Positions 1-15,780 of a stretch of DNA of 64,000 nt are shown here, piece after piece. The notes below the pieces were generated by a model that saw only the letters and a list, made by a program, of their open reading frames with translations, searched no databases and was not told the DNA's origin. Position numbers and translations under genes: made by a program. Source of the stretch: Candidatus Omnitrophota bacterium (GTDB lineage Bacteria > Omnitrophota > Gorgyraeia > Duberdicusellales > 4484-171); assembly GCA_043823745.1 (NCBI GenBank), contig JBDRAN010000035.1:13795-77794 (forward strand). Reading direction: 5' to 3'. Every line of letters begins with the position of its first letter. Position 1 is the first letter of the stretch.

Positions 1-379
1 GGCGCTGGGCACGTAATGAAATCTGCTCAGGCGACTCCTCGGCACTTACATATAATGTTTTATCTACAAAGGAAAGCTGCGCCGCAACCTCAAGGAGTAA
101 TGTTGACTTTCCAACCCCCGGCTCTCCTCCAAGAAGAATGACCTCTCCCTTAACCAAGCCACCGCCTAAAATCCGGTCAAGACCCTCAATGCGGGTTGAA
201 ATCCTGGTAACCTCGTTCTTACCGACTTCCTTGACCAACTGGGGTGAAGTTTTTTCTTTCACAAAAAGCGCGGCTCCTTCCACCTGCTTCTCCTCGGCGA
301 ACGTTTCCCAGCCTTCACATAAAGGGCACCTGCCCAGCCACTTCACCGATTTATATCCGCAATTTGAACAATGAAACAT
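1..379 (-). CDS. radA: DNA repair protein RadA/Sms, N-terminal part; gene runs off the window start
   Basis: The reverse-complement translation from an ATG at 377-379 gives MFHCSNCGYKSVKWLGRCPLCEGWETF, a C4 zinc ribbon, followed by GGEPGVGKSTLLL (Walker A). This is the typical RadA N-terminus. The ORF track misses it because it has no stop codon in the window. Confidence 0.8.
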   Translation of the reverse strand, partial: MFHCSNCGYKSVKWLGRCPLCEGWETFAEEKQVEGAALFVKEKTSPQLVKEVGKNEVTRISTRIEGLDRILGGGLVKGEVILLGGEPGVGKSTLLLEVAAQLSFVDKTLYVSAEESPEQISLRAQR

Positions 380-474
380 TAGTCGTGCCTCTCCTCAAAC
401 ACTAAACACGAAACCCAAAATCCGAAACATTACTTGTTTCGAGCTTCGAATCTCGTGTTTTGATTGCGAAACCC

Positions 475-1188
475 CTATTTACGCTTTCTCGACTCTCGCG
501 GTTTATATAACAGTTTCCACGGATGATTCTTCAGATCGTCAATAAGTTCTTCAGTCTTACGAAAAATAGAATCGTCGTAAAGAAACTTACCCAACGTGCC
601 CTGTTGTTTCTGAATGTCCTCGGTCATACGCTTAACGTTAAGCGTTATCGCTTCGGTATTGTTAAGAATATTTTCAAACGACACTCTCAGTTTTCCATCT
701 TTAACGAACTCGTTGACCTCACGCATGGTTTTATGAAAATTATGCACAACAGTAAAAAGCGGAAGCGGCGAAATACCTTCGACGACTTCGCCGCGCTCGA
801 AATAACCATCTATTTTGTCCGGAGGCATTATTTCAAGATATTTCTCGCCGAATAAACTCAAGCTATTGATAATAAACGATGAATTACGTGGAATACGCGT
901 ATCTTCCTGCACCTTCGCGTACACAAAAACAACCGGCTGGCCTTCTTCCTGAGCAATCTCAACGCGCTTAACCTCTCCGACATCAACACCACAGAAACGC
1001 ACCGGGGATGCCGGACGAAGACCTTCGGCGAAATAAAAACGGATCTTAAGCTCGTAGGTACCTTTCCAAAAGGTCACGTCACGGATCGAAAGAAGGGTGA
1101 TCAAGAGCACAATAAGCGCAAGGATAAAGAAACCTCCCATTTTTAGCTCGCGCATATATTTTTTCATATCCCAGGTTTCATTCTTCAT
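475..1188 (-). CDS. mlaD: MlaD (MCE-domain periplasmic component of the phospholipid ABC transporter)
   Basis: 237 aa with an N-terminal TM helix followed by an MCE domain. It lies immediately downstream of the MlaF/MlaE-like genes. Confidence 0.7.
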   Translation of the reverse strand: MKNETWDMKKYMRELKMGGFFILALIVLLITLLSIRDVTFWKGTYELKIRFYFAEGLRPASPVRFCGVDVGEVKRVEIAQEEGQPVVFVYAKVQEDTRIPRNSSFIINSLSLFGEKYLEIMPPDKIDGYFERGEVVEGISPLPLFTVVHNFHKTMREVNEFVKDGKLRVSFENILNNTEAITLNVKRMTEDIQKQQGTLGKFLYDDSIFRKTEELIDDLKNHPWKLLYKPRESRKRK

Positions 1189-1202
1189 CGCCCCACCCCC
1201 TT

Positions 1203-1270
1203 CTCTAAACGCTAATGACCGCGAATAAAAAACGCGAATTACCGCTAATTGGAAACATTAATTTACGCTA
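1203..1270. repeat. Intergenic repeat CGCTAATGACCGCGAAT...AACGCGAATT (second copy at 7550..7610)
   Basis: A near-identical ~35-bp block lies downstream of mlaF and again downstream of mcsA. Confidence 0.65.
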
Positions 1271-1280
1271 ATCAGAAGTA

Positions 1281-1360
1281 TCTAGTATTGAGTATTGAGT
1301 CTATTAAAGCGCCTTTTATTCCCTCACGCGATACTCAATACTCTGTACTCAATACGCCTT
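1281..1360. repeat. Intergenic hairpin repeat built from tandem GTATTGAGT units (family also at 9995..10095 and 12860..12935)
   Basis: The arm AGTATTGAGTATTGAGT pairs with ACTCAATACTCTGTACTCAATAC. It lies between mlaF and mlaD. Confidence 0.75.
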
Positions 1361-1377
1361 CTTTATCTGCCATCTTT

Positions 1378-1410
1378 CCCATGAGCTAACAGCTATGAGC
1401 TCATGGGCTT
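1378..1410 (-). terminator. 10-bp-stem hairpin immediately after the mlaF stop codon (no U-tract)
   Basis: CCCATGAGCT-aacagctatg-AGCTCATGGG is a perfect inverted repeat. It lacks a T-run, so it may be an attenuator or REP-like element rather than an intrinsic terminator. Confidence 0.3.
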
Positions 1411-1413
1411 TCT

Positions 1414-2181
1414 TCATACTTCCGTCTCCTTGATCGGACCCGCCGACGAACCCTTAATAAACTGTATGACCCGCGCATCGGACGTATTGTTAAGATTGTC
1501 TTTATCACCAAAGAAAATAATTCTTCCGCCCAGAAGAAACGCCAAGCGATCGGCAAGTTTCAGACCCACCTCCAGGTCGTGCGTCACCACCAATGACGTA
1601 ATGCCGAGACGTTTATGTAAATCATCAATTAAGGAAACAACCTTGTCCACCGCGATAGGGTCAATCCCGGTAGTCGGTTCATCATAAATAATGATTTTAG
1701 GGTTATAAATAATGGCGCGGGCGATCGCCACGCGCTTCTTCATGCCTCCGGAAAGCTGGTACGGGTATAAGTCCTCTATCCCCTCAAGCCCTACCAATTT
1801 TAATGTATCCTTGGCGCGCTGACGGATTTCAGGCTTTTTGAGATTTGTATGCTGATAGAAATAAAATCCCACGTTCTCCTCAATGGTAAGAAAATCAAAA
1901 AGTGCCGCACTCTGAAAGACCAATCCAAACAACAATCTAATTCTCTCAAGTTCTTTTCTGGAAAGCTGCGTAATATCTGTCCCGTCAATAAAAACCTTAC
2001 CGGAATCAGGGCGCAGGAGCCCCATGATATTTTTAAGAAGCACCGTCTTTCCGGCTCCGCTGCGGCCGATAATAAGAAAAGTTTCGCCCTTATTAATGGT
2101 AAGATTAACACCATCGAGCACTTTTTTGGCGCCAAAGAACTTAGTGATATTATCAATATGGATCATTGCTTCAGTGCTCAT
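1414..2181 (-). CDS. mlaF: MlaF-like ABC transporter ATP-binding protein
   Basis: Walker A GRSGAGKT, signature LSGGMKKRVAIARA, Walker B IIIYDEPTTGID; about 255 aa, as in MlaF. Confidence 0.75.
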   Translation of the reverse strand: MSTEAMIHIDNITKFFGAKKVLDGVNLTINKGETFLIIGRSGAGKTVLLKNIMGLLRPDSGKVFIDGTDITQLSRKELERIRLLFGLVFQSAALFDFLTIEENVGFYFYQHTNLKKPEIRQRAKDTLKLVGLEGIEDLYPYQLSGGMKKRVAIARAIIYNPKIIIYDEPTTGIDPIAVDKVVSLIDDLHKRLGITSLVVTHDLEVGLKLADRLAFLLGGRIIFFGDKDNLNNTSDARVIQFIKGSSAGPIKETEV

Positions 2182-2321
2182 AGTGGTGCCCGTTCAGCTT
2201 TCAGACCAAGACTCCCTCCCCGACAGGGGACATGAACCTCTCCGGACTAAAGTCCGGAGTTTCTTTATAATCTCACGCATGTATCCACGGGTTAAAAGCC
2301 CATGGATTTGTGCGGTGGCGA

Positions 2322-3083
2322 TTAAAAAAGGAAATAAAAAAACGCAGTTAATATGCAATCACACACAATAATAAGGATAAAAGAACGCACGACAGCTTTC
2401 GTAACCGATTCGGAAACATCGGTAGATGAAAACGGCCGAAAACCCTCATAGCAACAGACAAATGCGATGATCGAGCCAAAACAAATACTCTTAATAAAAC
2501 CATTCATAAGATCTTTCATTTTAAGAGCATCGAAGGTGAGCTTAAAATACAGGTTAAAAGGGATCCCGAACTTTGATGAGCCGACCAAATAGCCCCCAAA
2601 AATACCAAGAAGGTCAGCATAAATAATAAGCACCGGCATGGTGATCAGCAGCGCCAGGAATTTGGGAACCACCAAATAATCGATAGGATCAACGGCAAAC
2701 GCATCCAGCGCGTCAACCTGTTCGCTGATTTTCATCGAACCAATACCGGCGGTGATCGAGGCGCCGCTGCGCGCGGCCACAATCAAAGAGCCAAGCACCG
2801 GGCCAAGCTCGCGAACCAACGATAGAGCCACGAGTGACGCGATATAAATTTCCGAGGAAAATTGTTTCAATTGATAGGCTGTCTGAAAGGCGATAATAAT
2901 CCCAATAAAAAAAGAAATCAGGGAAACAAGGGGTAAGCTATCGATACCAATAAAAATAATTTCACGAACAAGGGATTTAAGACTGCGTTTCTTTCTGAAG
3001 ATCCAGGCAAATGTTTCGCTTACAAAGAAAGTCATCCTGCCGAAATAACCCAATAGGTCAAGGCTGCTTCTAATAAGCCTCAT
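2322..3083 (-). CDS. mlaE: MlaE-like ABC transporter permease
   Basis: 253-aa polytopic membrane protein of MlaE size and architecture. Its 1-nt overlap with the upstream ORF suggests translational coupling. Confidence 0.7.
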   Translation of the reverse strand: MRLIRSSLDLLGYFGRMTFFVSETFAWIFRKKRSLKSLVREIIFIGIDSLPLVSLISFFIGIIIAFQTAYQLKQFSSEIYIASLVALSLVRELGPVLGSLIVAARSGASITAGIGSMKISEQVDALDAFAVDPIDYLVVPKFLALLITMPVLIIYADLLGIFGGYLVGSSKFGIPFNLYFKLTFDALKMKDLMNGFIKSICFGSIIAFVCCYEGFRPFSSTDVSESVTKAVVRSFILIIVCDCILTAFFYFLF

Positions 3084-3961
3084 CAGAATTCTCTCCTGCG
3101 CTCAAAACCAAGAATGCTTTTATCTTCCTGCATGCGAAGCTTCAGATAATTGTCACGGTACATTTTATAGCGTAACTCGGTACCGGGTTCCATAGAGTCC
3201 TCATCCTGACGCGCTCGAGCATCAAGTAAAACGTCAAAGTTCCCCTCGACCTCTTTCCTGAACCCCACATTTTTATCTTCCTCGGCGAGCAGGCGCCATC
3301 CGTCAAGCGTTACCTCGTGGGACACAAATGCCGCGCCCGGAAAAAGATTATTGAAGTCGCGCAAACTTAACGTGCCGTCAATTGCGTAACTACTACCATT
3401 CTTTAAGACAATTTTCGAATCGGTTAGCATCAAAAGAGGAGGCTTACCTAAAAAATTAAGCGCGAAACTTGAAAACTCAACCCCTTGGTAGACTCCATCC
3501 ATAATATTAATGGATCCACTTGCAAGATAGTTGGTCAATTGTCCCCAGATTTTTGCGTGCGCGCTGATTTTTCCTTTTAACTGTGGCTCTTCTTGGAATG
3601 TATTAACGTCAACATTAAGAAATACATCCTGATTCTCAATATTCACGTTTCCCTTGACAAGAAATTCCGGCGAAGAAAAATGACTCACATAGAGTGTATC
3701 GCCGCGCTTGACGATTTTAAGTTTTATCCACGGAAACAACTTTTCTTTGACGGCAATATTTTTCCCTTCGAGATTAAAGATAAGCGCTTCGTTCTCGCTC
3801 TTAACATCAAAAGTAAAGTCACCTCTGATGTTAAGATTTCCAATCGGAAACCCGGCCATCTCTATCTTCCGATTCTGAAAATCAATCGCGACAGAATTCT
3901 GCGCATACAGCGGCATAACACAGACTGCGATGCCTAATACAGAAAGAAAAAAAATTCTCAT
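3083..3961 (-). CDS. Secreted hypothetical protein (signal peptide, beta-rich) in the clpC-mla operon
   Basis: Hydrophobic N-terminal signal sequence [21 protein letters not shown]. No recognisable catalytic motif. It overlaps both the clpC stop codon and the mlaE start codon. Confidence 0.5.
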   Translation of the reverse strand: MRIFFLSVLGIAVCVMPLYAQNSVAIDFQNRKIEMAGFPIGNLNIRGDFTFDVKSENEALIFNLEGKNIAVKEKLFPWIKLKIVKRGDTLYVSHFSSPEFLVKGNVNIENQDVFLNVDVNTFQEEPQLKGKISAHAKIWGQLTNYLASGSINIMDGVYQGVEFSSFALNFLGKPPLLMLTDSKIVLKNGSSYAIDGTLSLRDFNNLFPGAAFVSHEVTLDGWRLLAEEDKNVGFRKEVEGNFDVLLDARARQDEDSMEPGTELRYKMYRDNYLKLRMQEDKSILGFERRREF

Positions 3962-6399
3962 TCAAATTGTAACTCTTCGCCTTTCCTGCTCACTCTAATT
4001 TTTACCACTTTTTCCGTTTTTAATCGTTCCTTAAATGTTCCTTTAATAATATCCTCGGCAAGCGGATCCTCCAGGAAACGCTGGATAACCCTCTTTAAGG
4101 GGCGCGCGCCAAAAAGAGGATCAAACCCCTTATCGATAAAAAACTCTTTCGCATCAGGCAACATCTGGATCTCAAAACCCTGGTCTTTGACGCGTTCGTT
4201 GACATACGAGATTTCAATATCCACGATCTGCTCAAGATCTTCCTTGCTTAGGGGCCTGAATACAATCGTTTCGTCAAGCCGGTTTAAAAATTCAGGCTTA
4301 AACGTTTTCTTCACCTCCTCAAAAAGGAGCCGCTTCATATCCTCGTAACTAATATCATCGGTGATAGTTTTAAAACCAAGCGAGCCGCGCTTACGAATAA
4401 TTTCAGCGCCGACATTTGAAGTCATGATCAGGATCGTATTGCGAAAACTAACCCTTCGGCTAAAACTATCGGTTAATCTGCCTTCCTCTAAGATCTGCAA
4501 CAGCAGATTAAACACATCGGGATGCGCTTTTTCGATTTCATCGAGCAGGACTACCGAGTATGGCCGGCGGCGCACTTTTTCGGTAAGCTGCCCCCCCTCT
4601 TCATATCCGACATATCCCGGAGGAGCGCCGATTAAACGCGAGACATTGAACTTCTCCATATATTCACTCATGTCAAGCTGGATAAGCGCGTCCTCATCTC
4701 CAAACATAAACTCAGCCAGGGCTCGCGCGAGCAGCGTTTTACCGACACCCGTGGGGCCCATGAAAAGAAACGAACCAATAGGCCGGCGAGGAGCCTTAAT
4801 GCCCGCGCGCGCTCTGCGTATCGCGCGCGCGATTGAATCAATCGCCTCGGGTTGCCCGATAACTTTCCCGGCGAGCTCAGCCTCTGCACGCAAAAGCTTC
4901 TCTGATTCCTTCTGCTCAAGACGGTATATCGGAATACCCGTGATCTGCGCTACCAGACGCGCAATGTCTTCCTCGGTAACGGTCGGAACGATCTGATCGC
5001 GTTTTTTACTCCAATCCTTACGCAAGCTATCAAGTTTAAGTCTCAATGTTTTCTCTTCGTCACGTAAGCGTGCTGCCGCTTCAAAATCCTGTTGCTTGAT
5101 CAACGCTTCTTTTTCTTTCGTGATCTCATTAAGCTGTGTTTCGGATTCCTTAATTTCCTTGGGCGCGGTTAATACGGTAAGGCGCGCACGGGCGCCCGAT
5201 TCATCAACAAGATCAATTGCCTTATCAGGAAGAAATCTTCCGGAAACATAACGATCGGAAAATTTAGTCGCCGCCTGAAGGGCCTCATCCGTAAATTGCA
5301 CGCGATGATGAGCTTCGTATTTATCCCGAAGTCCTTGTAAAATTTCTACGGTTTCTTCCACGGTCGCAGCCTCAACATAAATCGGCTGAAATCTACGCTC
5401 AAGCGCTGCATCTTTTTCAATATGCTTCCGGTATTCATCAAGCGTCGTTGCGCCGATACATTGTATTTCCCCGCGCGAAAGTGCCGGTTTTAATATGTTA
5501 GAAGCGTCAATCGCTCCTTCAGCGGCACCGGCGCCCACCAACGTATGCAACTCATCAATAAAAATAATAACGTCCTTTGATCGTTTAATTTCCTCCATTA
5601 CCGCTTTAATGCGCTCTTCAAATTGACCGCGATATTTAGTCCCGGCGATCATCAGTGCTAAATCAAGCACGATCAGGCGTTTGCTGCGCAAAAGCTCCGG
5701 CACATCACCTTTGGTAATACTCTGAGCGAGCCCCTCGACAATTGCGGTCTTACCCACACCAGCCTCCCCCAATAACACCGGATTGTTCTTTGTCCTACGG
5801 GAGAGTATCTGGATGACCCGCTCAATTTCTAATTTCCGTCCGATGACAGGGTCAAGTTTTCCGTCTTTGGCCAGCTTCGTTAAATCACGGCCAAATGAAT
5901 CGAGCGCGGGAGTTTTTGAGGAAGTCGATGTGGCGGTCTGACTCGTTGCGCCTTGGGGATGAGCACCTCCTAAAAGCGCTGAAATTTCTTCGCGCACCTT
6001 CGCAATGTCAATACCCAATGAAAAAAGCACCTGTGAAGCAAGGCCTTCTCCTTCACGGATAAGGCCAAGGAGTATGTGCTCCGTCCCGATATAGTTATGC
6101 CCCAAATTACGTGCCTCTTCAGCCGCAAGTTCAAGCGCCTTTTTAGCGCGCGGTGTAAATGGAATATCTCCGAGCACCGAAGCCGAGCTACCCGGAGAAA
6201 TAAGCTTCTCTATCTCGATACGCAAGCGTTCAAGATCAATCCCTAAATTCTGCAACACCGCGCAGGCAACACCTTCTCCCTCACGAACAAGGCCGAGTAA
6301 AATATGTTCCGTCCCGATATAATCGTGATTAAAGCGCCTCGCTTCTTCTTTTGCCAACACCAATACTTTTCGTGCCCTTTCGGTAAATCGATTAAACAT
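3958..6399 (-). CDS. clpC: ATP-dependent Clp protease ATP-binding subunit ClpC
   Basis: 813 aa. Duplicated Clp_N repeats ([12 protein letters not shown] twice). Two AAA+ modules with Walker A GEAGVGKT and [12 protein letters not shown]-like coiled coil lies between them. Confidence 0.9.
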
Positions 6400-6494
6400 T
6401 CCTTGACCTCCTTAAAAATACAGAGAGCTCATATCGAGGAGCTCTCAATCGCTCATTATGCAATAAAACCTAAAGCCAAACGCGACAGGCAACC

Positions 6495-7553
6495 TTACTG
6501 ATTCAATACCAAACGCTCTCGTAAAATCGACGCTCTAATGAAATCGCGCTCTTCTTCCTTGAGAGGCTTATTCTCAATCTTCTGCAAATGCGCCGGCTGG
6601 ATCATTAAAAAAAGACTGTTAATAAGCTCGCGCCGTATCCCTCTAATTATACCTAAATCAAGACCCAAAGACAACATCGAAAGATGGCTCAACGCTTCTT
6701 TGCTACCGATGAGACGGCAATGTTTTAGTATTCCGAAAGCCCGCCAAACATTATCCTGGAGGCTAAATTTGTATTTTTTTACCAGGCTATCGCGAGAAGC
6801 GATCTCCTGTTCTTTTACTTGATTAACAACGCCTGAAAGATTATCAATAATTTCCTGCTCGGAAAGACCGAGCGATCCCTGATTGGAAATTTGGAAAAAA
6901 TCACCCAGAGCCTGCGTACCTTCACCAAAGAGGCCGCGCGCGGTAAAAGAAATTTTAACGAGAAGCTCTAAGATCTTATTGATACGTTTCGTTAAAACAA
7001 GTGCCGGGATATGAAGCATGCATGAAGCGCGCAGCGCTGTCCCCGTATTGGTAGGGCACGAAGTCAGATATCCCAAATCAGGTAGAAAAGCGAAATCAAC
7101 CAAATGATCAAGCTCATCATCGATTTGCCGGGCAATATTCCAGCAATGAGCCAGGTCAAACCCCGACGTAATCACTTGCAGGCGTACATGATCCTCTTCA
7201 TTTACCATAAGCGCAATGCGCTCATCGTTTGAAACGATCAAGCCCTTAGCTTTAGGAGAGATACTATGTTCCTGGCTTATAAGGTGTCTTTCAAGGAGAA
7301 GCTGACGATCGATTTCGTCAACATTCTCCATGCGCACAAATGAGCTTCTCTTAAGCAATCCAAGATTATCGATGACTCCTTCGATCGTGGCACACACATT
7401 CTCTTTTTGAGCGCCGGAAGCACGGGACGGAAAAGGAATGTCGGCAAAATTACGCGCAAGACGAACACGCGACGAAAACACGATCTCAGAGGAAGGCCCT
7501 TTGCCATTAAGCCAGCTATTTTCGTTGGTAAGAAGGTTTTCAAACATATTCAA
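6495..7553 (-). CDS. mcsB: Protein arginine kinase McsB (ATP:guanido phosphotransferase)
   Basis: Guanido-kinase active-site motif CPTNTGTALRAS; about 350 aa; positioned between mcsA and clpC as in the Firmicutes cluster. Confidence 0.8.
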   Translation of the reverse strand: MNMFENLLTNENSWLNGKGPSSEIVFSSRVRLARNFADIPFPSRASGAQKENVCATIEGVIDNLGLLKRSSFVRMENVDEIDRQLLLERHLISQEHSISPKAKGLIVSNDERIALMVNEEDHVRLQVITSGFDLAHCWNIARQIDDELDHLVDFAFLPDLGYLTSCPTNTGTALRASCMLHIPALVLTKRINKILELLVKISFTARGLFGEGTQALGDFFQISNQGSLGLSEQEIIDNLSGVVNQVKEQEIASRDSLVKKYKFSLQDNVWRAFGILKHCRLIGSKEALSHLSMLSLGLDLGIIRGIRRELINSLFLMIQPAHLQKIENKPLKEEERDFIRASILRERLVLNQ

Positions 7554-7763
7554 GCGCTAATGACCGCGAATCCAAAAGACGCGAATTTTCGCGAATGTAA
7601 AAACGTGAAGCTCCCTCTGTTATCTCCAATCTGAAATTCCGCCTCTCCGCTTGCAGCAGAGGGCGAGACCTCGCCAGCTATTGCCGGCGGGCTGCCATCT
7701 TCCTTATGAGCCATGGACTATGGACTTTCTCTCGCCCCGCATCCAATGCGCTGTCTTTAAACC

Positions 7764-8258
7764 TCACGAGGCACGTTTAGCTTCTGCCTGTTTTATTTCA
7801 TCACGCAGGCGGGCCGCTTCTTCATACTCCTCGAGATTGATTGCCCGCTGGAGCCGTTCTTTGAGCTCGCTGATTTTTGCGGACGACGTGATTTTCTTTT
7901 CTTTACGATAAGGAATTTTTCCCGCGTGACTGGTAGAACCGTGAATTTTCTTAAGTAACGGCAGGAGCACTCCTCTAAACGCGCTGTAGCAATACGCACA
8001 GCCAAGCCGCCCTTTTTTTTTGAAATCAGCGTAACTTAAGCCGCACGAAGAACATTTCAGAGCTATCTCTTCCTTTTCTTTAAGCGGGTCGAGGCCGGTC
8101 AAACCTACGAGAAAATCAGAGACATTAAGCTGATCTTTGATCTCTTCTGTTTTTGATTTAGCGCACGCCTGGCATATGTGCAGCTCCGCAATCTTATCAT
8201 GAACGATCTCGGTAAGATGCACCGTCGCTATATTTTTGTGGCAAATGTCGCAAACCAT
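7764..8258 (-). CDS. mcsA: McsA-like activator of McsB (zinc-finger plus UVR-domain protein)
   Basis: N-terminal CxxC pairs (CDICHKN, CQACA, CSSCG, CAYC); C-terminal UVR motif EEYEEAARLRDEIKQAE. Confidence 0.75.
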   Translation of the reverse strand: MVCDICHKNIATVHLTEIVHDKIAELHICQACAKSKTEEIKDQLNVSDFLVGLTGLDPLKEKEEIALKCSSCGLSYADFKKKGRLGCAYCYSAFRGVLLPLLKKIHGSTSHAGKIPYRKEKKITSSAKISELKERLQRAINLEEYEEAARLRDEIKQAEAKRAS

Positions 8259-8284
8259 ATCTCTAATATTTTGAATGACTAATT

Positions 8285-8400
8285 TCGAAGTCCCGAATGA
8301 CGAATGAATGATTGATGCTTGAATGATTAGAAATTTCTAAATTTAATCATTGAGTGGTAATTCGAAATTCGGGTTTCGTCATTCGTCATTTACAAACTAT
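8285..8400. promoter_or_regulatory. ~110-bp imperfect palindrome carrying tandem heptads (ATGACGA ATGACGA) immediately upstream of mcsA-mcsB-clpC
   Basis: AATGACGAATGA at about 8300 and its reverse complement at about 8383. The flanks CGAAGTCCCG and CGGGTTTCG pair. It ends about 30 bp before the mcsA ATG (8258). Confidence 0.35.
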
Positions 8401-9280
8401 ATTTCACTCCCTTTGTCTTGGTTGCTTTTTTGAACTCGCGCCTTAGGCGCGCCGTAAGAGGCCCTGGTTTCCCGTCACCGATCGAGCGCCCGTCAATCTT
8501 AACCACAGGAATGATTTCCGCTGCTGTTCCGGTCAAAAAACATTCTTGGCTGATATACACCTCATGACGTGTAAGCACGTGTTCGTGCGTTGGGATCTTT
8601 GCAGCTCGGGCAAGCGCAAGCACTTCATCGCGCGTTATCCCGCGTAACGTGCCCATGCATTGGGGGGGCGTATACAGGTGGCCCTTCTCCACCACGAAGA
8701 TGTTGTCTCCGGTACACTCGGCAACATACCCAAGATGATCAAGCATGAGCGCTTCCTCAAATCCACAATTACTTGCTTCGATTTTCGCTAAAATATTATT
8801 TAAATAGTTAAGCGACTTAATCTGGGGATTGAGCGCCTCCGGTATGGTGCGCACCGTGGGCACCGTCATGATCGCCATTCCCTCCTGATAGAGTTTTTCC
8901 GGATACAGCGAAACTTTGTCCGCAATAACGACGACTGTGGGCTTACCAAAACATTTCTTGGGATCAAGTCCTAAGTCACCCTCACCCCGCGAGACAATAA
9001 GACGCACATAGGCGTCTTTCAAACGATTGGCCTTCAATGTTTTGACAACCGCGTCAATACACTCCTTTTTACTCAAGGGAATCGTAAGCATGATTGAATG
9101 CGCAGACTCAAAGAGCCGGTCAATATGCTCCTGCAATTTAAACACCCGGCAATTGTAAGCCCGTATCCCCTCGAATACCCCGTCGCCGTATAAAAAGCCG
9201 TGGTCAAATACCGAGATCTTCGCTTCTGATTTTTCAACTAACTTACCGTTTAAATAAATTTTCATTGAACCCTCCTTCAT
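8390..9280 (-). CDS. Class IV aminotransferase (branched-chain amino acid / D-amino-acid aminotransferase family)
   Basis: FDHGFLYGDGVFEGIRAY and the overall ~290-aa fold-type IV pattern. The real start is probably MKIYLNG near 9265. Confidence 0.7.
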   Translation of the reverse strand: MKEGSMKIYLNGKLVEKSEAKISVFDHGFLYGDGVFEGIRAYNCRVFKLQEHIDRLFESAHSIMLTIPLSKKECIDAVVKTLKANRLKDAYVRLIVSRGEGDLGLDPKKCFGKPTVVVIADKVSLYPEKLYQEGMAIMTVPTVRTIPEALNPQIKSLNYLNNILAKIEASNCGFEEALMLDHLGYVAECTGDNIFVVEKGHLYTPPQCMGTLRGITRDEVLALARAAKIPTHEHVLTRHEVYISQECFLTGTAAEIIPVVKIDGRSIGDGKPGPLTARLRREFKKATKTKGVKYSL

Positions 9281-9286
9281 ACTAAC

Positions 9287-9994
9287 CTACTGTGTTATGA
9301 TGCCGCCCGCAAGGCGAACGATACGGTGTGCGCGACGGGCAAGCTCAAGATTATGAGTAATAAGAACGAGCGCCTTTTTTTTATCGTGATGTAACGTTTC
9401 TAAAAGATGCATTACCTTATTCTGGGAATCAATATCGAGATTGCCCGTCGGTTCATCACATAAAATGATATCCGGGTTGTTGACGAGCGCCCGCGCTATC
9501 GCCACTTTTTGCTTTTCTCCTCCGGACAGCTGCGAAGGGAAAAAATCGCGACGCTCAATAATCCCTAAATATTCTAACAACTCCTGCGCTCTTTTGGAAG
9601 AAGATTTTCGTTTCATAGAATGCGCCGCGATGGCAATATTCTCGAGAACGTCGAGCTCCTCAATCAAATGATAGAACTGAAAAACAAAACCGATAGTCCG
9701 ATTACGCCAACGCGCCAACGCTCGCTCACCCATCGCATGGATGTCACTGCCCCGGAAGAAAATCGTCCCGTGTGTCGGCTCGTCAAGGCCGCCCATCATA
9801 TGCAACAGCGTCGACTTGCCCGCGCCGGAAGGCCCAACGATAGCGCAATAATCTCCTTCAGGAATCGCCAGCGTGACCTCGCGCAACGCAGCAACGGCGC
9901 CTTGAGCTGATGCGCCGGCATCATAAATTTTTGTTACCGCAACAATGTCGAGTAAGGTATTCATGGTGTATGCAGTATAGAATGTATTTTCCAT
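9287..9994 (-). CDS. lolD: LolD/MacB-type ABC transporter ATP-binding protein
   Basis: Walker A GPSGAGKST, signature LSGGEKQKVAIARAL, Walker B ILCDEPTGNLD. The true start is probably MNTLLDIV near 9964, because the track ORF reads into an intergenic hairpin. Confidence 0.7.
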   Translation of the reverse strand: MENTFYTAYTMNTLLDIVAVTKIYDAGASAQGAVAALREVTLAIPEGDYCAIVGPSGAGKSTLLHMMGGLDEPTHGTIFFRGSDIHAMGERALARWRNRTIGFVFQFYHLIEELDVLENIAIAAHSMKRKSSSKRAQELLEYLGIIERRDFFPSQLSGGEKQKVAIARALVNNPDIILCDEPTGNLDIDSQNKVMHLLETLHHDKKKALVLITHNLELARRAHRIVRLAGGIITQ

Positions 9995-10095
9995 GTATTG
10001 AGTAGTGAGTATTGTGTATTGAGTTTATCGAAAGCGTATCTTTCATCTCCTACTCGATACTCAATACTCTGTGCTCTATACTCAATCTTGCTAAA
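9995..10095. repeat. Intergenic hairpin repeat, GTATTGAGT family, between the LolC/E-like and LolD-like genes
   Basis: The arm GTATTGAGTAGTGAGTATTGTGTATTGAGT pairs with ACTCGATACTCAATACTCTGTGCTCTATACTCAAT. Confidence 0.7.
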
Positions 10096-10102
10096 CGCTA
10101 TC

Positions 10103-11260
10103 TTATTCGTACCTGAGCGCTTCCGACGGAGCAAGGCGCGATGCGCGTATTGCCGGAAGTAAACTTGAAAAAAACGCAAGCGCTATTCCCACGAGCGCGA
10201 TGAGGCCGATATCCCGGTAGTTAAGTGCAACAGGCAGGCTTTCCACGTAATATATTTCTTCCGGCAGTTTTATAAATTGATACTTAGCAAGCGCCCAACA
10301 CAACCCCAGCCCCAGGATGAGGCCGGCTGCCACGCCGATAACGCCCAAAAGAAGCCCTTGCAGGCTGAACATCGCCAAAATCTTATTGTTGGTAAACCCC
10401 AGCGACTTGAGCACTCCAATGTCTTTGGTTTTCTCAACTGTTTTCACCGTCAGGGTCGCAAAGATGTTAAATGATGCTACCAGCACGATCAGGCTTAAAA
10501 TAACAAACATCGCGATCTTTTCAAGTTTAAGAGCCGAGAAAAGAATACGATTGGTCTCCATCCAGGTACTAGCAAAAACTCCTTCAGGGAAATCGGCGAC
10601 TATCCTTTGCTTGATACGCTCTGCGGTAAACGGGTCTTTGATACGTATCCCTAAAAATAAAAGATAATTGGGAGTCAGCGTTTTTGCTTTTGCGAGGTCC
10701 ATAATCAAATAATTATTATCAATATCGTAGATGCCCACCTTAAAAGTTCCGCGAATCTGTCCTTCCTGAAGCTCCATTTTCCGCGCCAAAGGATACCACT
10801 CAAGCTTGCGAGCCAGATAATAACGTTTTTTCAGCCCTTCACCAACAAAAAAACCATCGTTCTTCAAATCTTCTTTAACATACTTATAAAATATCGCGGC
10901 TTCCTGCGCATCGGCCAGATCAACGCCCTTAACCATAAGCGGCGCAACATAATTTTCAAATTTAGCAAATACCTGTGTCTGCAGGTATACTGAAGCGCTC
11001 TCGACTCCCTCGTAAGCCAAGACCTTTTCTTTAATGCCGCCAAGCTCCTCTGATTTGACGCTCTCAACAACAAGATGATAATTAAAACGCAGGAGTTTCT
11101 CCATCAGATCGCGGTCAAAACCGTTCATCACGGAAATAACCACGATCAGCGCCGCAACACCAAGCGCGACTCCTGTGCAAGAAATAACACCGATAAAGGA
11201 AATATGTTTGGCCTTGCCCCTAAAAAGATACCGGCGAGCTAAGAATAGTTCTGTTCTCAT
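10103..11260 (-). CDS. LolC/LolE-family (FtsX-like) ABC transporter permease
   Basis: 385 aa. N-terminal TM helix, large periplasmic domain, C-terminal three-TM FtsX-like region. Directly upstream of the LolD-like ATPase. Confidence 0.65.
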   Translation of the reverse strand: MRTELFLARRYLFRGKAKHISFIGVISCTGVALGVAALIVVISVMNGFDRDLMEKLLRFNYHLVVESVKSEELGGIKEKVLAYEGVESASVYLQTQVFAKFENYVAPLMVKGVDLADAQEAAIFYKYVKEDLKNDGFFVGEGLKKRYYLARKLEWYPLARKMELQEGQIRGTFKVGIYDIDNNYLIMDLAKAKTLTPNYLLFLGIRIKDPFTAERIKQRIVADFPEGVFASTWMETNRILFSALKLEKIAMFVILSLIVLVASFNIFATLTVKTVEKTKDIGVLKSLGFTNNKILAMFSLQGLLLGVIGVAAGLILGLGLCWALAKYQFIKLPEEIYYVESLPVALNYRDIGLIALVGIALAFFSSLLPAIRASRLAPSEALRYE

Positions 11261-11340
11261 ATATTTACACGCAGATCATCGCAGATTAACACCACCGATG
11301 AACACAGATTTCTATCTGTGCCGATCCGTTCAAGTCTGAG

Positions 11341-12774
11341 CTAATCTGTGCCTTCAAGGGGCTTAAGAAGCGGAAATAAAATTACGTCTCTGATGGAAGG
11401 CTGATTTAAAAGAATCATTACGAGCCTGTCAATGCCAATACCAAGGCCTGCCGCCGGGGGCATCCCATATTCGAGACTCGTAACAAAATCCTTATCAATC
11501 TTTTTAGGAAGCTCCTCCTCGACCTCAAGCTGCTTGGTAAAACGCGCCTCCTGCTCAATGGGATCGTTTAATTCGGAATAGGCATTCGCGACTTCAAGCC
11601 CGGCAATAAACAGCTCAAAACGCTCAACGAGCGCAGGATTATCTCTGACGGTTTTCGCCAGCGGCGAAGTCCAGGTAAAAAATTCGGTAATAAATGCCGG
11701 CTTATCTTTTGGAAAATTCTTTTCAATGAGCTCCTCGGTAATATTTAATATTTGGGTGCGGCTGACGGCTTTTGCCGAAAGATTCATTTTCTTGACCACC
11801 TTCTCGACAAACACCGACTCAACATCTCCTGATTCGACCCCAAACTCTTGCTTAAAAAGCGCCGCGAAAGAAATCCGCTGCCAGGGCGGCGTAAAATCAA
11901 TTTTGGCTCCCTGGTAGTCAATCACCAACGTTCCATGAAGCTCCTGGACCAGTTGTGAAAACAGGTCTTCGCATGTTTTCATCTGATACTCATAGTTTTC
12001 ATAGGCGCAATACGCCTCAAGCATCGTAAACTCCGGAGAATGCCGCGTAGAAACTCCTTCGTTGCGAAAGCTCCGGTTGATCTCATACACACGCTCCATA
12101 CCCCCGACCAGAAGCCGTTTTAAATAGAGCTCCGGGGCGATACGAAGATACACGTCCATATCATTGGCATTATGGTGCGTAACAAACGGTTTCCCGACAG
12201 CCCCTCCCGCTAAAGGGTGCAGCATCGGCGTTTCCACTTCAATAAACCCGCGGTTGTTAAAAAAATCACGGATACGGGCGATGATTTTCGAACGCTTAAT
12301 AAAGACTTCTCGCACTTCGGGGTTTGCGATTAAATCAAGGTAACGCTGGCGATACCTGACCTCAACATCTTTTAAACCGTGCCATTTTTCGGGTAACGGA
12401 CGCAACGCCTTGGCAAGTACCGTAATATTTTCCGCCAATACCGTCTGCTCTCCGGTACGCGTTACAAAGAGCTTTCCCTTGATGCCGATAATGTCACCGA
12501 TATCTAAATCTTTAAAAAGCTGGTAGTGCGCGCCCAGCGTGTTAAGTTGAGCGTAAAGTTGGATTTTTCCAGTATGATCGCTGATGTGGCCAAAGCTTGA
12601 TTTACCGTGCTCACGCTTGGCAATGAGCCGGCCGGCAATCGTAACTTCTTTTCCTTCCGCAAAACCATCAACTATCTCTTTGATATTCAATGGTTTAGGA
12701 AAACTCGTCTGCGCAAAAGGGTTACCAAATTCCTGAGTGATTTTATGCAATTTCTCGATACTCATAAGCCACAA
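11341..12774 (-). CDS. lysS: Lysine--tRNA ligase (class II)
   Basis: N-terminal OB anticodon-binding domain; class II motifs FRNEGVSTRHSPEFTMLE and GLGIGIDRLVMIL. Confidence 0.9.
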   Translation of the reverse strand: MWLMSIEKLHKITQEFGNPFAQTSFPKPLNIKEIVDGFAEGKEVTIAGRLIAKREHGKSSFGHISDHTGKIQLYAQLNTLGAHYQLFKDLDIGDIIGIKGKLFVTRTGEQTVLAENITVLAKALRPLPEKWHGLKDVEVRYRQRYLDLIANPEVREVFIKRSKIIARIRDFFNNRGFIEVETPMLHPLAGGAVGKPFVTHHNANDMDVYLRIAPELYLKRLLVGGMERVYEINRSFRNEGVSTRHSPEFTMLEAYCAYENYEYQMKTCEDLFSQLVQELHGTLVIDYQGAKIDFTPPWQRISFAALFKQEFGVESGDVESVFVEKVVKKMNLSAKAVSRTQILNITEELIEKNFPKDKPAFITEFFTWTSPLAKTVRDNPALVERFELFIAGLEVANAYSELNDPIEQEARFTKQLEVEEELPKKIDKDFVTSLEYGMPPAAGLGIGIDRLVMILLNQPSIRDVILFPLLKPLEGTD

Positions 12775-12859
12775 TTATATATACTATACCTATAGATGTC
12801 AAACCAAATCACTATTCAGCTTTTTCGTATTGCGTATCGCGTCCCTACCAGGAGGCTTC

Positions 12860-12935
12860 GCACTATTGAGTATTGCACTTTAGGGGTTACGCACTCAATA
12901 CTCTGTACTCGATACTCAATACTTTCTTCACTAAT
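12860..12935. repeat. Intergenic hairpin repeat, GTATTGAGT family, between oppF-like and lysS
   Basis: The arm CTATTGAGTATTGCACT pairs with ACTCAATACTCTGTACTCGATACTCAATAC. Confidence 0.7.
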
Positions 12936-12953
12936 CGCTAACCGCTATCCGCT

Positions 12954-13718
12954 CTACGCTAATACATGATTGGCCGCGGCGAGCAACCGCTTGGTGTATG
13001 AATGGACTGGATTTGTAAAGATCACCTGGCTTATACCCTGCTCAACGATTGCACCTTGATACATGATGTAGCAGAATTGAGAAATCCTTTTAAGCAGCTT
13101 TAGGTTATGAGAGATAAAAAGAAAAGTCATACTATGTTTTTTTTGCAGGTGCGCAAGAAGCCTAATAATAGTCACTGCGGTGGTAGCGTCAAGACTTGAT
13201 GTAGGTTCGTCAAAGATTACCATACGGGGCCTGTTAATGAGCGCGCGCGCAATCGCCACGCGCTGCTGCTGGCCCCCGCTTAACTCGTGAGGATACCGGG
13301 TAAGGTAGGTTTCGTCAAGCTCGACTTCCGCTAATGCCGCGCGCACCGTTGATAATGCCTCCGCACGCCTGATCCTATGCCGCACCCGAAGGACCTCATC
13401 GAGTGTCGCAAACACGGTATAGCGATGATCAAGGCTTGCGCTAGGATTTTGAAAAACGATCTGAATATTTTCGCGCACAAGGCGCTCATTACGGGGAGGT
13501 GTAATGTCGGCCCCATTACACCGAATAGAGCCACACACGGGCCGGTTAAATCCAAGGATAGTCCGTGCCAAAGTCGTTTTCCCACATCCGCTTTCCCCCG
13601 CAAGGCCGATGACGCCCTGCTGCGGAAAGCGTAACGTAACACCATCAAGCGCTTTGATCACGTCGCGTTTCTGCTTAAAATATACTTTGAGGTCTTCTAT
13701 CGTTAAAAAGTCAGCCAT
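12954..13718 (-). CDS. Opp/Dpp-type ABC transporter ATP-binding protein (F subunit)
   Basis: Walker A GESGCGKTT, signature LSGGQQQRVAIARAL, Walker B VIFDEPTSSLD. Confidence 0.75.
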   Translation of the reverse strand: MADFLTIEDLKVYFKQKRDVIKALDGVTLRFPQQGVIGLAGESGCGKTTLARTILGFNRPVCGSIRCNGADITPPRNERLVRENIQIVFQNPSASLDHRYTVFATLDEVLRVRHRIRRAEALSTVRAALAEVELDETYLTRYPHELSGGQQQRVAIARALINRPRMVIFDEPTSSLDATTAVTIIRLLAHLQKKHSMTFLFISHNLKLLKRISQFCYIMYQGAIVEQGISQVIFTNPVHSYTKRLLAAANHVLA

Positions 13719-13724
13719 TTCTAA

Positions 13725-14513
13725 TTATAATTCTCCCAATTCTTTAAAAGATGCAAGGAGACTTTTAGAATAATTCTCTCCCGGCGCACGGAAAAAGTTA
13801 TCGACTGCCGCGGCCTCTACAACTTTCCCCGCGCGCAGCACCACTAGGCGGTCGCAGAGCGCTTTTACTAAATCAAGATTATGCGTAATAAACAGCATGC
13901 TAAAACGATACTCCCGGCGCAATGCTTTGAGAAGATTTATAATTTCGCTCTCCGTGGTAACGTCAAGAGAACTCGTCGGCTCATCGGCAATAATCAACGA
14001 GGGCTCAAGCATCAGCGTCATGGCCAGCGCTACCCTTTGGAGTTGGCCTCCGCTGAGCTCGTGAGGATAACTTGCAAGCACGCGCTTTGCTTCTTTTAAG
14101 CGCACTTTATTAAACACAGTATCGATGGCCTCATTGAATTGACTTTTTGCGCGTAGCCCTTTTTTAATACGCAACACCTCGCGCACCTGATATCCAATAC
14201 TTAAAACCGGATTGAAACTTGAGGCGGGCTCCTGCATAATCAGGCCAAGATTATTTCCACGCAAGCTCTCAAGCCGGGTCTTTCTCGCCTTAAAAATACT
14301 TTCTTGACGGAAAAAAATATCGCCTTTCGTGTACGCATCGAGCGGTAAAAGGTCTAGGATCGAGAACGCGAGAGTGCTTTTACCGCTTCCTGATTCACCG
14401 ACAATACCAACGATCTCATTCTCGTTAACACTGAAACTAACATCATCAAGTGCCGCGCGGTTTTGCGGGGTTGACTGATAGTGTACGGTAAGATTTTTTA
14501 TTTCTAAAATCAT
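13725..14513 (-). CDS. Opp/Dpp-type ABC transporter ATP-binding protein (D subunit)
   Basis: Walker A GESGSGKST, signature LSGGQLQRVALAMTL, Walker B IIADEPTSSLD. Confidence 0.75.
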   Translation of the reverse strand: MILEIKNLTVHYQSTPQNRAALDDVSFSVNENEIVGIVGESGSGKSTLAFSILDLLPLDAYTKGDIFFRQESIFKARKTRLESLRGNNLGLIMQEPASSFNPVLSIGYQVREVLRIKKGLRAKSQFNEAIDTVFNKVRLKEAKRVLASYPHELSGGQLQRVALAMTLMLEPSLIIADEPTSSLDVTTESEIINLLKALRREYRFSMLFITHNLDLVKALCDRLVVLRAGKVVEAAAVDNFFRAPGENYSKSLLASFKELGEL

Positions 14514-14581
14514 ATACTATTCACCCAGACTTCAGGCTTTACGCTATAAACCTAGAACCTGTAACCTTGAGCCTACACCCC

Positions 14582-15637
14582 TTACAGGATCTTCCTCTTC
14601 GGATCCAACGCGTCCCTGAGCGCGTCTCCGACAACATTAAAACAAACGACGGTTACCAGAATAAATATTCCCGGCGTAAGTATCCAGGGAGAAAGACGAA
14701 TATTAACGATCCCGAGCGCTGACGAAAGAAGATTACCCCAGCTTGCCTGCGGCTCCTGGATACCCAGGCCCAGTAAACTCAATGCCGCCTCCGCGCCAAT
14801 ATACCCGGGAATACTTAAGAAAAACGCCGCCAATACATAAGAAAACGTGTGCGGCAAAATATGACGCGTGATGATCGCGACATGCGACAAGCCGCTTGCG
14901 CGCGCGGCATAAACAAACTCACGCTCCCGAAGCGATAAGCTCAAGCCTCTGATGATGCGGGCAATAGACGCCCAGCCAATCAAGGAAAGTATTACCACGA
15001 TAAGCAAATAAACCTCAAGCGAACGTAAATACGGCGGGAATGCGGCGCGAAGAGCAAGCATCAGATAAAATGCCGGAACGCACATGATGACTTCGCATAA
15101 ACGCATTAAAGCATTATCAACGCTACCCCCCGCGTAGCCGGCAATACCACCCACAACCATTCCGATTCCAAGCGAAAGAAGCGCTCCGACAATTCCTATG
15201 GAAAGAGAAACTTGCGCGCCATACAGAATACGGGAGAAGATATCGCGGCCGCGGCTATCTGCGCCGCATAAAAATACTTTTGTCCCCGGCGCTCCGAAAA
15301 AATGAATATCACTCTCAAACAAACCAAAAAGTTTATAACGGCTACCGCGCACAAACAACTTCACCGGACACGATTTCATTGTATCTTCAACGTATACACG
15401 CTGATAATATTCATTCAGTGAAACATTCCGCCGATAGACAAAGGGAGGGCTTACCCTATTGTTTCCATCAATCAAATGAATCTGTGAGGGCGGCGCATAT
15501 ACCGTCAAAACATCATCGTCGTCGTAATGGTAAGGCGCAAAAAAAGGAGCAAACAGAGCCATCGTATACAAAACACCTAAGACCACAAGGCTCGCCAGCG
15601 CTAACTTGTTATGAGTGATTGTTTTTAGAATGTTCAT
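14582..15637 (-). CDS. Opp/Dpp-type ABC transporter permease (C subunit)
   Basis: Polytopic permease of about 350 aa with an N-terminal extension, as in OppC/DppC. Confidence 0.7.
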   Translation of the reverse strand: MNILKTITHNKLALASLVVLGVLYTMALFAPFFAPYHYDDDDVLTVYAPPSQIHLIDGNNRVSPPFVYRRNVSLNEYYQRVYVEDTMKSCPVKLFVRGSRYKLFGLFESDIHFFGAPGTKVFLCGADSRGRDIFSRILYGAQVSLSIGIVGALLSLGIGMVVGGIAGYAGGSVDNALMRLCEVIMCVPAFYLMLALRAAFPPYLRSLEVYLLIVVILSLIGWASIARIIRGLSLSLREREFVYAARASGLSHVAIITRHILPHTFSYVLAAFFLSIPGYIGAEAALSLLGLGIQEPQASWGNLLSSALGIVNIRLSPWILTPGIFILVTVVCFNVVGDALRDALDPKRKIL

Positions 15638-15639
15638 AA

Positions 15640-15765
15640 TGAGTAAGCGTAGAGCGGTTAGCGTAGAGCGTATAGAAAAAAATTAGCGAAGATTAGAAAA
15701 TTCTAAATTCTATATTTTTCTCTAAACGCTATCCGCTCAACGCTCTACGCTAAACTTGACACCCT
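15640..15765. repeat. Intergenic palindromic repeat (GCGTAGAGCG... / ...CGCTCTACGC) between the oppB-like and oppC-like genes; related to 12935..12965
   Basis: Inverted copies of GCGTAGAGCGGTTAGCGTAGAGCG and CGCTCAACGCTCTACGC. A shared ACGCTATCCGCTC block also occurs at 12935-12960. Confidence 0.6.
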
Positions 15766-15780
15766 GTAAGCATTAGCCCC

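Follow-up and report, generated by a model that had tools for sequence, protein, structure and literature searches.

How does a short tandem repeat come to lie both in hairpins between housekeeping genes and, in frame, inside a giant gene? The question is raised by a 64,000-nucleotide stretch of a Candidatus Omnitrophota bacterium genome (GenBank assembly GCA_043823745.1, contig JBDRAN010000035.1, positions 13,795 to 77,794; hereafter the window), the genes of which are all on the minus strand and which comprises ordinary genes at 1-17177 and a single giant open reading frame (ORF) of 15,593 codons at 17178-63959. The original prediction, made from the letters of the window, held that spacer hairpins and giant-ORF linkers are built from the same 9-nt block, and that a mobile or recombinogenic repeat connects the two. 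Our results reveal instead a 7-nt unit, palindromes with heptamer-array arms that are dispersed in spacers, and a heptamer-bearing linker cassette within the giant ORF; slippage of the unit, together with copying of whole elements, is the explanation that we consider probable, though by no means secured.

The repeat unit is a heptamer

The 9-nt building block does not stand as proposed. Because adjacent copies lie 7 nt apart (1285 and 1292) and Tandem Repeats Finder returns period 7 everywhere, the real unit is a heptamer, GTATTGA or, on the other strand, TCAATAC, and the "9-mer" corresponds to a unit with two extra bases. The exact 9-mer, GTATTGAGT, occurs 11 times in the window against 0.22 expected, a number reached by none of 100 shuffles; three intergenic hairpins account for nine of the copies, and the giant ORF for the other two (53241 and 53255). 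Compositional bias, which had been raised as the trivial explanation for the recurrence of the word, is rejected by these counts.

Period 7 is specific. Arrays of this period number 19 in the window versus 0.7 in shuffles, with periods 3-6 and 9-13 at background and period-8 arrays at 7 versus 0.1. All eight arrays of the housekeeping part are intergenic, though intergenic DNA makes up 9.4% of it (P = 6e-9), and 15 kb of ordinary coding DNA contains no heptamer array versus 11 in the giant ORF. Identity at a lag of 7 nt is 0.409 in the window spacers and 0.360 in those of three syntenic relatives (L122, L123 and L124, described below); coding DNA, the giant ORF as a whole and the spacers at other lags are all at ~0.25.

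The GTATTGA motif is one among at least six heptamer or octamer families in the window (GTATTGA, NNTAGCG, ATGACGA, AAACACG, AGTCCAT, GTCACAAG and others), and hence does not constitute a unique link between the spacers and the giant ORF. In the form GTANNGA it is the commonest hairpin family of the window, accounting for three of about seven hairpins in 17 kb, and a 17-mer, GTATTGAGTATCGAGTA, is common to the giant ORF (53241) and two spacers, where it lies in the hairpins termed B and C below (10051 and 12906).

Intergenic hairpins of the window

The stem-loops predicted in three spacers were confirmed, at 1277-1355 (hairpin A), 9995-10086 (hairpin B) and 12863-12923 (hairpin C), with arms of two to six degenerate heptamers (GTATTGA, GTAGTGA, GTATCGA, GTACAGA and GTATAGA) in place of the two to four tandem 9-mers that had been described. 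Like the genes around them, the hairpins are given here in minus-strand sense. Hairpin A lies between mlaF (stop 1414) and mlaD (start 1188); its 5' arm in mRNA sense (1328-1355) reads GTATTGA-GTACAGA-GTATTGA-GTATCGC and its 3' arm (1277-1300) TCAATAC-TCAATAC-TAGATAC, with an inter-arm gap of 27 nt (1301-1327). Hairpin B, with arms of four to six degenerate GTANNGA / TCNNTAC heptamers, fills the spacer from FtsX to the ABC ATPase gene (stop 10103, annotated ATG 9994); it is identical, with no indel, in L001, a second assembly of 99.98% identity and the sole one for comparison of copy number. Hairpin C lies between oppF (stop 12954) and a sigma-70 consensus promoter for lysS that is just downstream of it; its 5' arm reads GTATTGA-GTATCGA-GTACAGA-GTATTGA, and its stem is weak because the 3' arm has only two units. 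A short direct array, GCGATAC-GCAATAC, follows downstream of hairpin C (12826-12842, minus strand), and the 9-mer CGCAATACG of this array recurs in two of the linker cassettes of the giant ORF (34361 and 43685).

Other unit families form hairpins D (15646-15755, in the oppB-oppC spacer, NNTAGCG / CGCTANN), E (8262-8389, in the aminotransferase-mcsA spacer, ATGACGA / TCGTCAT) and F (395-470, downstream of mlaD, AAACACG / CGTGTTT); no other stem-loop in the region is as stable as D. On RNA folding, four of the six hairpins were far beyond shuffle stability (z -4.2 to -6.7), i.e. A (-27.0 kcal/mol, z -4.2), B (-27.7 kcal/mol, z -4.45), D (-51.2 kcal/mol, z -6.7) and F (-30.8 kcal/mol, z -5.3), with E at -25.7 kcal/mol (z -2.65). 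Most window spacers longer than 60 nt are, in gene sense, inverted pairs of heptamer arrays of various families; the total length of an element is 60-135 nt, each arm having 14-43 nt and the gap between the arms about 16-65 nt.

One reading of such arrays is regulatory, i.e. that a protein that binds RNA or DNA recognizes the heptamers as repeated sites, the linker copies being incidental. There is a precedent in the binding proposed for TAACTGA repeats beside start codons (PMC4679880); the 3' arm of hairpin B adjoins the annotated start (another possible ATG follows 10 codons later), and in other phyla many (TCAATAC)n arrays are found a few bases upstream of starts or directly after stops. 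Hairpins A and C, however, are ~90-100 nt upstream of the next start, and the units are degenerate within an arm and vary by spacer and by genome, whereas the architecture, an inverted pair in every hairpin, is constant, which speaks against one sequence-specific binder. We therefore regard a regulatory origin of the arrays as very unlikely.

Intrinsic (Rho-independent) terminators were also considered and rejected, since none of the heptamer hairpins is followed by a U-tract (or T-run in the DNA), and none is in the list of terminator-like sites. Rfam gave no match to the hairpins, the only returns being sub-threshold miRNA-precursor look-alikes on hairpin D. A rule whereby the array with stops in all frames is on the arm by the upstream gene holds for hairpins A-E and was rejected because it is reversed in L122.

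Hairpin families are genome-specific and dispersed

In three syntenic Omnitrophota loci, L122, L123 and L124, with LysS 83%, 86% and 77% identical to that of the window, respectively, nearly every spacer longer than 60 nt is an inverted heptamer-array pair, as in the window, but with other units (GCTNTCA, CAGGCNN, GCTCATAA, CAGAGGN and AAACCCT). Two tandem GTANNGA units, or their complement, occur at 10 sites in the window and at none in L122-L124, and two tandem GCTNTCA units are confined to L122. The hairpin families are genome-specific. Gene order is retained in the more distant genomes L369 and L370, the contigs of which are complete or nearly so. The spacers of L370 amount to 273 nt over 14 junctions versus ~1.4 kb at nearly the same window junctions, and L370 has no period-7 arrays; L369, with a few, is intermediate. 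The existence of compact relatives that have no hairpins, together with the dispersed families, implies that the hairpins are lineage-specific insertions or expansions.

Copies within a family are related over their whole length. The homology of hairpins A and B extends through the loop (shuffle p = 0.003), and L122 has three copies of another hairpin family that are 82-88% identical, loop included (64/73 and 67/82). The L122 oppC-oppD element matches that of L123 oppD-oppF at 65 of 85 positions (76%), the two spacers being non-orthologous and the flanking genes 73-80% identical. The density of copies is three of one family in 17 kb of the window and three of another in 21 kb of L122. On this basis, the hairpins look like dispersed palindromic elements, of a kind with repetitive extragenic palindromic (REP) and short tandemly repeated repetitive (STRR) sequences, that have been inserted into operon spacers.

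Two independent short-read assemblies of the same population, L126 (GCA_018827245.1, the ClpC of which is identical to that of the window) and L127 (Logan SRR10598176), end at or inside hairpin A, position 1 of their contigs corresponding to about window 1362 and 1351, respectively; such breaks are expected if the element recurs elsewhere in the genome.

A different type of sequence was observed within a hairpin of L122, where a 144-residue ORF of the 23S_rRNA_IVP family (PF05635; L122 11417-11911) lies in the loop of the lysS-FtsX heptamer hairpin, between arms CAGAGGA... and ...TCCTCTG; another IVP-like ORF is present in L369 (5627-5827), upstream of oppB.

The dispersal of the hairpins raises the reading first offered for this locus, namely that an element of REP type, or of the miniature inverted-repeat transposable element (MITE) type, has spread through the chromosome, was recruited in frame to encode linkers and is the driving force by which the giant gene gains modules. 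The hairpin copies are dispersed, genome-specific and paralogous with the loop included; a related copy is in a non-orthologous spacer of a sister genome; compact relatives have no hairpins, as insertions would predict; two assemblies break at hairpin A; and there is a 17-nt identity between spacers and linker. To this extent the proposal stands, i.e. for extragenic palindromes that are loosely REP-like. The signatures of the mobile element proper, however, were not found. Although the arms act as inverted repeats, no direct target-site duplication flanks A, B or C, and the flanks of A are complementary and lengthen the stem; there is no consistent GTAG or CGTC tag at the ends of A, B or C, GTAG being present only inside B as part of a GTAGTGA unit; and no transposase domain, including that of Y1 or REP-associated tyrosine transposases (RAYTs), was found among the window ORFs. 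The parts of this reading that concern the giant gene are considered with the linkers, below.

Linker cassettes in the giant ORF

The giant ORF is a mosaic of unrelated enzyme-like domains (by Pfam, Glu dehydrogenase, HATPase_c, M23, MraZ, GT1, transglutaminase, trypsin-like and PLP decarboxylase), joined by 42 [AVGT]SSP junction motifs. This domain mosaic matches the "multi-enzyme" class of Omnitrophota giant proteins, which are described in two preprints that make no mention of linkers, hairpins or heptamers. The in-frame repeat copies reported for the ORF are real, with 53241-53267 encoding SNSILDTQY, 32694-32724 encoding FTQYPIPNTQY and 34453-34475 encoding QYPILKTH; the recurrent T-Q-Y is the plain product of a heptamer array read through three frames.

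The TCAATAC family is present in the giant ORF in the stop-free sense orientation only, as direct arrays of ~4 units. The arrays are part of a paralogous linker cassette of roughly 90-200 nt, which occurs in about nine copies between unrelated domains, outside all Pfam domains, and is bounded by ASSP-coding motifs; eight of the copies include an array of the GTATTGA/TCAATAC family. The cassettes align as paralogous DNA and have the form ASSPA-(GTCACAAG)n-GAAGAAGT-(NCAATAC/NCACGAC)x4-AAGAG-ASSPA, which may also be written ASSPA-(GTCACAAG)n-EEV-(NCAATAC/NCACGAC)4-K-RASSPA.

All the cassettes are on the minus strand, with the ORF. That at 53208-53294 (aa 3556-3584), directly after the HATPase_c domain (aa 3415-3528), contains both exact in-ORF 9-mers and the 17-mer that it has in common with hairpins B and C; in sense it reads TCAATAC-TCGATAC-TCAATAC-GCACGAC (SNSILDTQYARR), and it ends in GSSP. 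The linker region at 32682-32879 (aa 10361-10426) includes a perfect (CCAATAC)x4.4 array at 32694-32724, i.e. GTATTGG x4.4 on the other strand, with 100% identity and a Tandem Repeats Finder score of 62. Two cassettes lie in tandem at 34308-34556 (aa 9802-9884; peptide SQGHTSQSHKVTSEEVDSTQYPILKTHDEQVVSSPA, followed by the second cassette), each of the form ASSPA-(GTCACAAG)n-GAAGAAGT-(NCAATAC/NCAAGAC/NCACGAC)x4-ASSP. A paralogue of this pair is found at 43626-43802 (aa 6720-6778; ASSPASQGHK...QGHKVTSEEVNSSQYARPTTHDSKRASSPAD), upstream of the Transglut_core domain (aa 6807-6918), with 56% identity by BLASTP between aa 6719-6773 and 9801-9845. The domain that follows the cassette at 45696-45842 (aa 6040-6088) has a paralogue, from ~aa 7667, that is preceded merely by ASSPGRRVSSP and no cassette. 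Further copies are at 39474-39611 (aa 8117-8162; ASSPASQSHQSPGHKVTS...PTNDKRYTNDDIRK), with a diverged array of GATAAAC / GATATAC units, at 27090-27188 (aa 12258-12290; VSSPASQGHKVTSKREAASSSS), a short version with the GTCACAAG array only, and at 23070-23195 (aa 13589-13630; ASSPALTSHKPQGHKVTSKIEAASSPTDDHDPK).

None of 5.8 billion proteins has three 5-residue words in common with the peptide encoded by 34308-34556, so there is no sign of the cassette at domain boundaries of other large genes. Neither was a homologue found in that collection, self-hit included, for the 380 residues of aa 5851-6230 (45270-46409, minus strand), which comprise a domain, a linker and a domain; since both segments are without any match, the giant protein itself seems to be absent from the public protein collection.

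Inverted repeats within coding DNA were seen at the ASSP ends of two cassettes, one of 17 nt with 82% complementarity (53221-53287, with the TCAATAC array in its loop) and one of 21 nt with 90% complementarity (23178-23240). The idea that the linkers are hidden hairpins was rejected, since a scan of eight linker regions turned up no inverted repeat in five.

No whole element can have been domesticated as in-frame linker DNA, because a GTATTGA array puts TGA in all three frames. Orientation makes no difference, since the palindrome begins with a GTATTGA arm either way; with TGA within GTATTGA, only direct arrays in TCAATAC sense are possible in frame. What the ORF has are direct arrays in cassettes that are paralogous to each other and not to the hairpins, which argues against a mobile element as their source.

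A rather different origin for the linkers is that neighbouring genes fused, with deletion of the stop codon, 5' arm and loop of a spacer hairpin leaving its stop-free (TCAATAC)n 3' arm as a linker. The linkers do join unrelated enzyme-like domains; ORF copies of the TCAATAC family are exclusively in the 3'-arm orientation; outside the giant ORF, arrays are confined to spacers; and at least three ORF array families (NCAATAC, AGTCCAT and GAGCTTAT) are also present in spacers of this or related genomes. On the other hand, the single composite architecture of the cassettes and their conserved peptides imply one origin followed by spread rather than independent relics, the DNA after the cassettes shows no trace of a promoter, ribosome-binding site or start codon, and most junctions consist of a bare ASSP with no array. 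We consider it improbable that the cassettes are relics of this type.

ASSP junctions and module duplications

The 42 [AVGT]SSP motifs, 32 of which are exact ASSP, mark junctions between unrelated domains of the giant ORF. The identical codons GCC AGC TCG CCG are used in 13 of the 42, and the 11-mer GCCAGCTCGCC occurs 17 times, in every case in the coding sense of the giant ORF and never outside it. Conservation of the ASSP-coding motif at the DNA level was nevertheless rejected, because the codons vary in L122 though the motif is kept; the signal is thus one at the peptide level. ASSP could be a processing or modification site, or could provide microhomology for module shuffling.

Internal module duplications in the giant ORF are 41-88% identical (aa 1-91 and 13083-13173; 6066-6273 and 7635-7828; 9076-9404 and 13211-13540; 11421-11500 and 11825-11907). 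The first of these means that the initial 91 residues of the protein are repeated at about residue 13,083. An ASSP-like motif lies a few to ~20 residues from the ends of the duplicated modules, and over five pairs of domain duplications a single boundary falls on a heptamer array, the sixth pair being the linker cassette itself. The idea that the repeat drives modular expansion thus finds no support: the recurrent junction signal of the giant gene is the ASSP motif, and the heptamer is carried along as a passenger within a linker cassette private to this gene. Taking these findings with the absence of target-site duplications, of consistent tags and, among the window ORFs, of transposases, and with the in-frame exclusion of the palindrome, a REP/MITE-type element that was domesticated and expanded the giant gene is in our view unlikely, its dispersed and loosely REP-like hairpins notwithstanding.

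GTATTGA arrays beyond this genome

In a scan of 185,579 genomes, three GTANNGA units were found at more than 120 loci, in Bacteroidota, Ignavibacteria, Cyanobacteria and Omnitrophota among others; most of the loci are intergenic and consist of direct repeats, with arrays of other heptamers alongside. No mention of GTATTGA or TCAATAC repeats was found in the papers searched. In viral contigs, triple tandems of GTATTGA are at 8 loci, compared with 25, 10 and 82 for control heptamers of the same composition and 107 for TAACTGA; since the controls are as frequent or more so, a special pan-bacterial role for the GTATTGA unit was rejected, and its spread across phyla is ordinary behaviour for heptamer simple-sequence repeats.

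The commonness of tandem heptamers of any sequence, and of GTATTGA-type arrays in genomes of many phyla, might suggest coincidence, i.e. that spacers and linkers gained GTATTGA-type arrays by independent slippage with no dispersed element involved. Slippage alone, however, does not account for the homology of the A and B loops or for the 82-88% identity of whole elements in L122; a rare family is shared by the spacers and linkers of one genome and is missing from all three relatives; and the shared 17-mer has the same variant unit in the same order. Coincidence accordingly ranks for us as the least probable of the alternatives.

A metagenome scan for the hairpin core returned nine loci, none of them related to the window, and no extra copies from this organism. 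Hairpins with a unit mix like that of the window, in which GTACAGA / GTATTGA / GTAGTGA face TCAATAC / TCACTAC, were observed in eight unrelated metagenome contigs (L128-L136, G+C 37-51%), the flanks of which have no similarity to the window. As for the 82 viral loci of one control, (TGTTGAA)x3 (L180-L259), most are from one IMG/VR sample (3300045988), several ~100-kb contigs of which have three to five arrays each and represent a phage group that is rich in one heptamer repeat.

Origin of the hairpins and cassettes

The explanation that we hold to be the probable one, i.e. heptamer-array palindromes dispersed in spacers and a heptamer-bearing cassette in the giant ORF, produced by slippage and whole-element copying, may be set out as follows. 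Once-short spacers between co-directional genes would have been filled in this lineage with palindromic elements of 60-135 nt, the degenerate-heptamer arms of which would enable the transcript, or single-stranded DNA, to form an imperfect stem-loop. Replication slippage in steps of 7 nt may have created the arms and altered their length, in line with a general bacterial bias toward heptameric simple-sequence repeats, and whole elements, arms and loop together, may then have been copied to new spacers via recombination or gene conversion, or by a transposition-like activity. Palindromes might persist as the least harmful type of operon insertion, in that the stem would loop out the insert and the upstream stop would stay near the downstream start. 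The stem-loop may also serve as a protective structure at RNA 3' ends or in pausing, as proposed for cyanobacterial STRR hairpins and Escherichia coli REPs. That spacers and linkers have a genome-specific unit family in common suggests a common source; the link may be exchange of sequence, or one slippage process at work in two unconstrained compartments.

Several results weigh against this explanation, or parts of it. The folded RNA of hairpin C (-12.6 kcal/mol, z -1.6) is scarcely above shuffle stability, and no hairpin scores as an intrinsic terminator, so that any role at RNA 3' ends is conjectural. Slippage is read from periodicity alone, because L001, at 99.98% identity with no indel, differs in no copy number, and the paralogous cassettes mostly hold the unit number at 4, which counts against frequent slippage in the ORF. 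The window has no transposase as an agent for the copying of whole elements. The 5-kb tail of the giant gene of L122 (L122 1-5087) has ASSP junctions and no heptamer arrays, and the parallel between spacers and linkers was seen in one genome only, the ordinary genes of which are sampled here over 17 kb only.

A bolder version is that an active, lineage-specific system for generating or mobilizing heptamer palindromes, which is neither RAYT/REP nor a classical MITE, invaded nearly all the spacers of this Omnitrophota clade, and that its stop-free half-elements, in frame, founded the linker cassettes that join the enzymes of the giant ORF. Were this so, the invasion of spacers and the fusion of genes into giant genes would be mechanistically linked; we would give it little credence at present.

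Comparison with known repeat systems

The closest known systems are the cyanobacterial STRR hairpins and, in behaviour, REPs. STRR sequences have 7-bp tandem units and form hairpin arrays between hupS and hupL and upstream of hoxW, with proposed roles in transcript stability, translational coupling and termination (PMC2670836). The likeness extends to the 7-bp tandem unit, the several families per genome, the almost exclusively intergenic location and the hairpins between co-transcribed genes, and the window indeed has a tandem 7-nt unit above chance, in several unit families, mainly in intergenic DNA. There are clear differences, in that the host is an Omnitrophota bacterium, almost every spacer is an inverted array pair, whole hairpins, arms and loop together, recur as dispersed paralogues, the units show far greater degeneracy, and the family is also present in frame in a giant ORF.

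REPs, which also form bacterial interspersed mosaic elements (BIMEs), are 20-40 bp in length, have a GTAG or CGTC tag and are mobilized by RAYTs; roles in mRNA stabilization and termination have been proposed for them (PMC3733652). Like the hairpins reported here, they are short imperfect palindromes that are extragenic, often inside operons, multi-copy and of species-specific sequence families. REPs are without internal 7-nt periodicity, whereas the window elements are 60-135 nt long, with heptamer-array arms and no consistent tag. The window elements thus depart from REPs in size and tag, and from MITEs, which have terminal inverted repeats and target-site duplications, in the latter.

TAACTGA repeats are direct repeats in marine Beggiatoaceae, Cyanobacteria and Bacteroidetes (MacGregor 2015, PMC4679880). 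In forward orientation they stop all three frames, and only reverse copies are found in ORFs, as 7-residue repeats at the periphery of domains (PMC4679880). They resemble the window arrays as intergenic heptamer arrays with an orientation limit inside ORFs. They differ in having one dominant unit, in direct repeats a few bases upstream of starts, whereas the window arrays are inverted pairs of many families, and their in-ORF copies are in a linker cassette that recurs within the gene. Just one arm in the window, the 3' arm of hairpin B, touches an annotated, and uncertain, ATG.

Heptamers are the most abundant class of long simple-sequence repeats in many bacteria, which is attributed to polymerase slippage (Mrazek 2007, as reported in PMC4679880). 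In this regard, the perfect non-triplet array in the giant ORF at 32694-32724 is of the type seen at contingency loci, a classical substrate for phase variation by frameshift. The arrays here are otherwise short (2-5 units) and degenerate, no copy-number polymorphism was seen in the one second assembly (L001), and both the palindromic arrangement and the paralogy of whole elements are foreign to ordinary simple-sequence repeats.

The role and origin of heptanucleotide repeats, of STRR and its kin, have been an open question since 1990. This clade offers a natural experiment, as the same gene block has tiny spacers and no arrays in L370 and spacers ~5x longer in the window; the longer spacers are almost wholly heptamer-array hairpins, and genome-specific families occupy differing spacers of sister genomes. 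The origin, spread and cost of the hairpins thereby become testable through comparative genomics and transcript mapping. With respect to the giant gene, the outcome is mainly negative, yet useful.

Neighbouring genes and the lysS promoter

The ordinary genes of the window are mlaD/F/E, clpC-mcsB-mcsA, an aminotransferase, FtsX/ABC, lysS, opp ABC genes and PilZ. The LysS protein has a 100% identical counterpart, with the annotation Candidatus Omnitrophota, on an NCBI contig of 107 kb. The promoter directly upstream of lysS (12802 to 12774, minus strand) is a 12/12 sigma-70 consensus, TTGACA-17-TATAAT. It is near base-for-base conserved in L122 (~9950-10000), L123 (~2740-2790) and L124 (9950-10000); unlike the promoter, the hairpins adjoining it differ completely among these three loci. 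Finally, an identical 17-mer, ATTCGCGGTCATTAGCG, which is composed of ATTCGCG / ATTAGCG heptamers and for which no occurrence is expected by chance, is present at 1210-1226 and 7555-7571 (minus strand), just upstream of the mlaD and mcsB starts.

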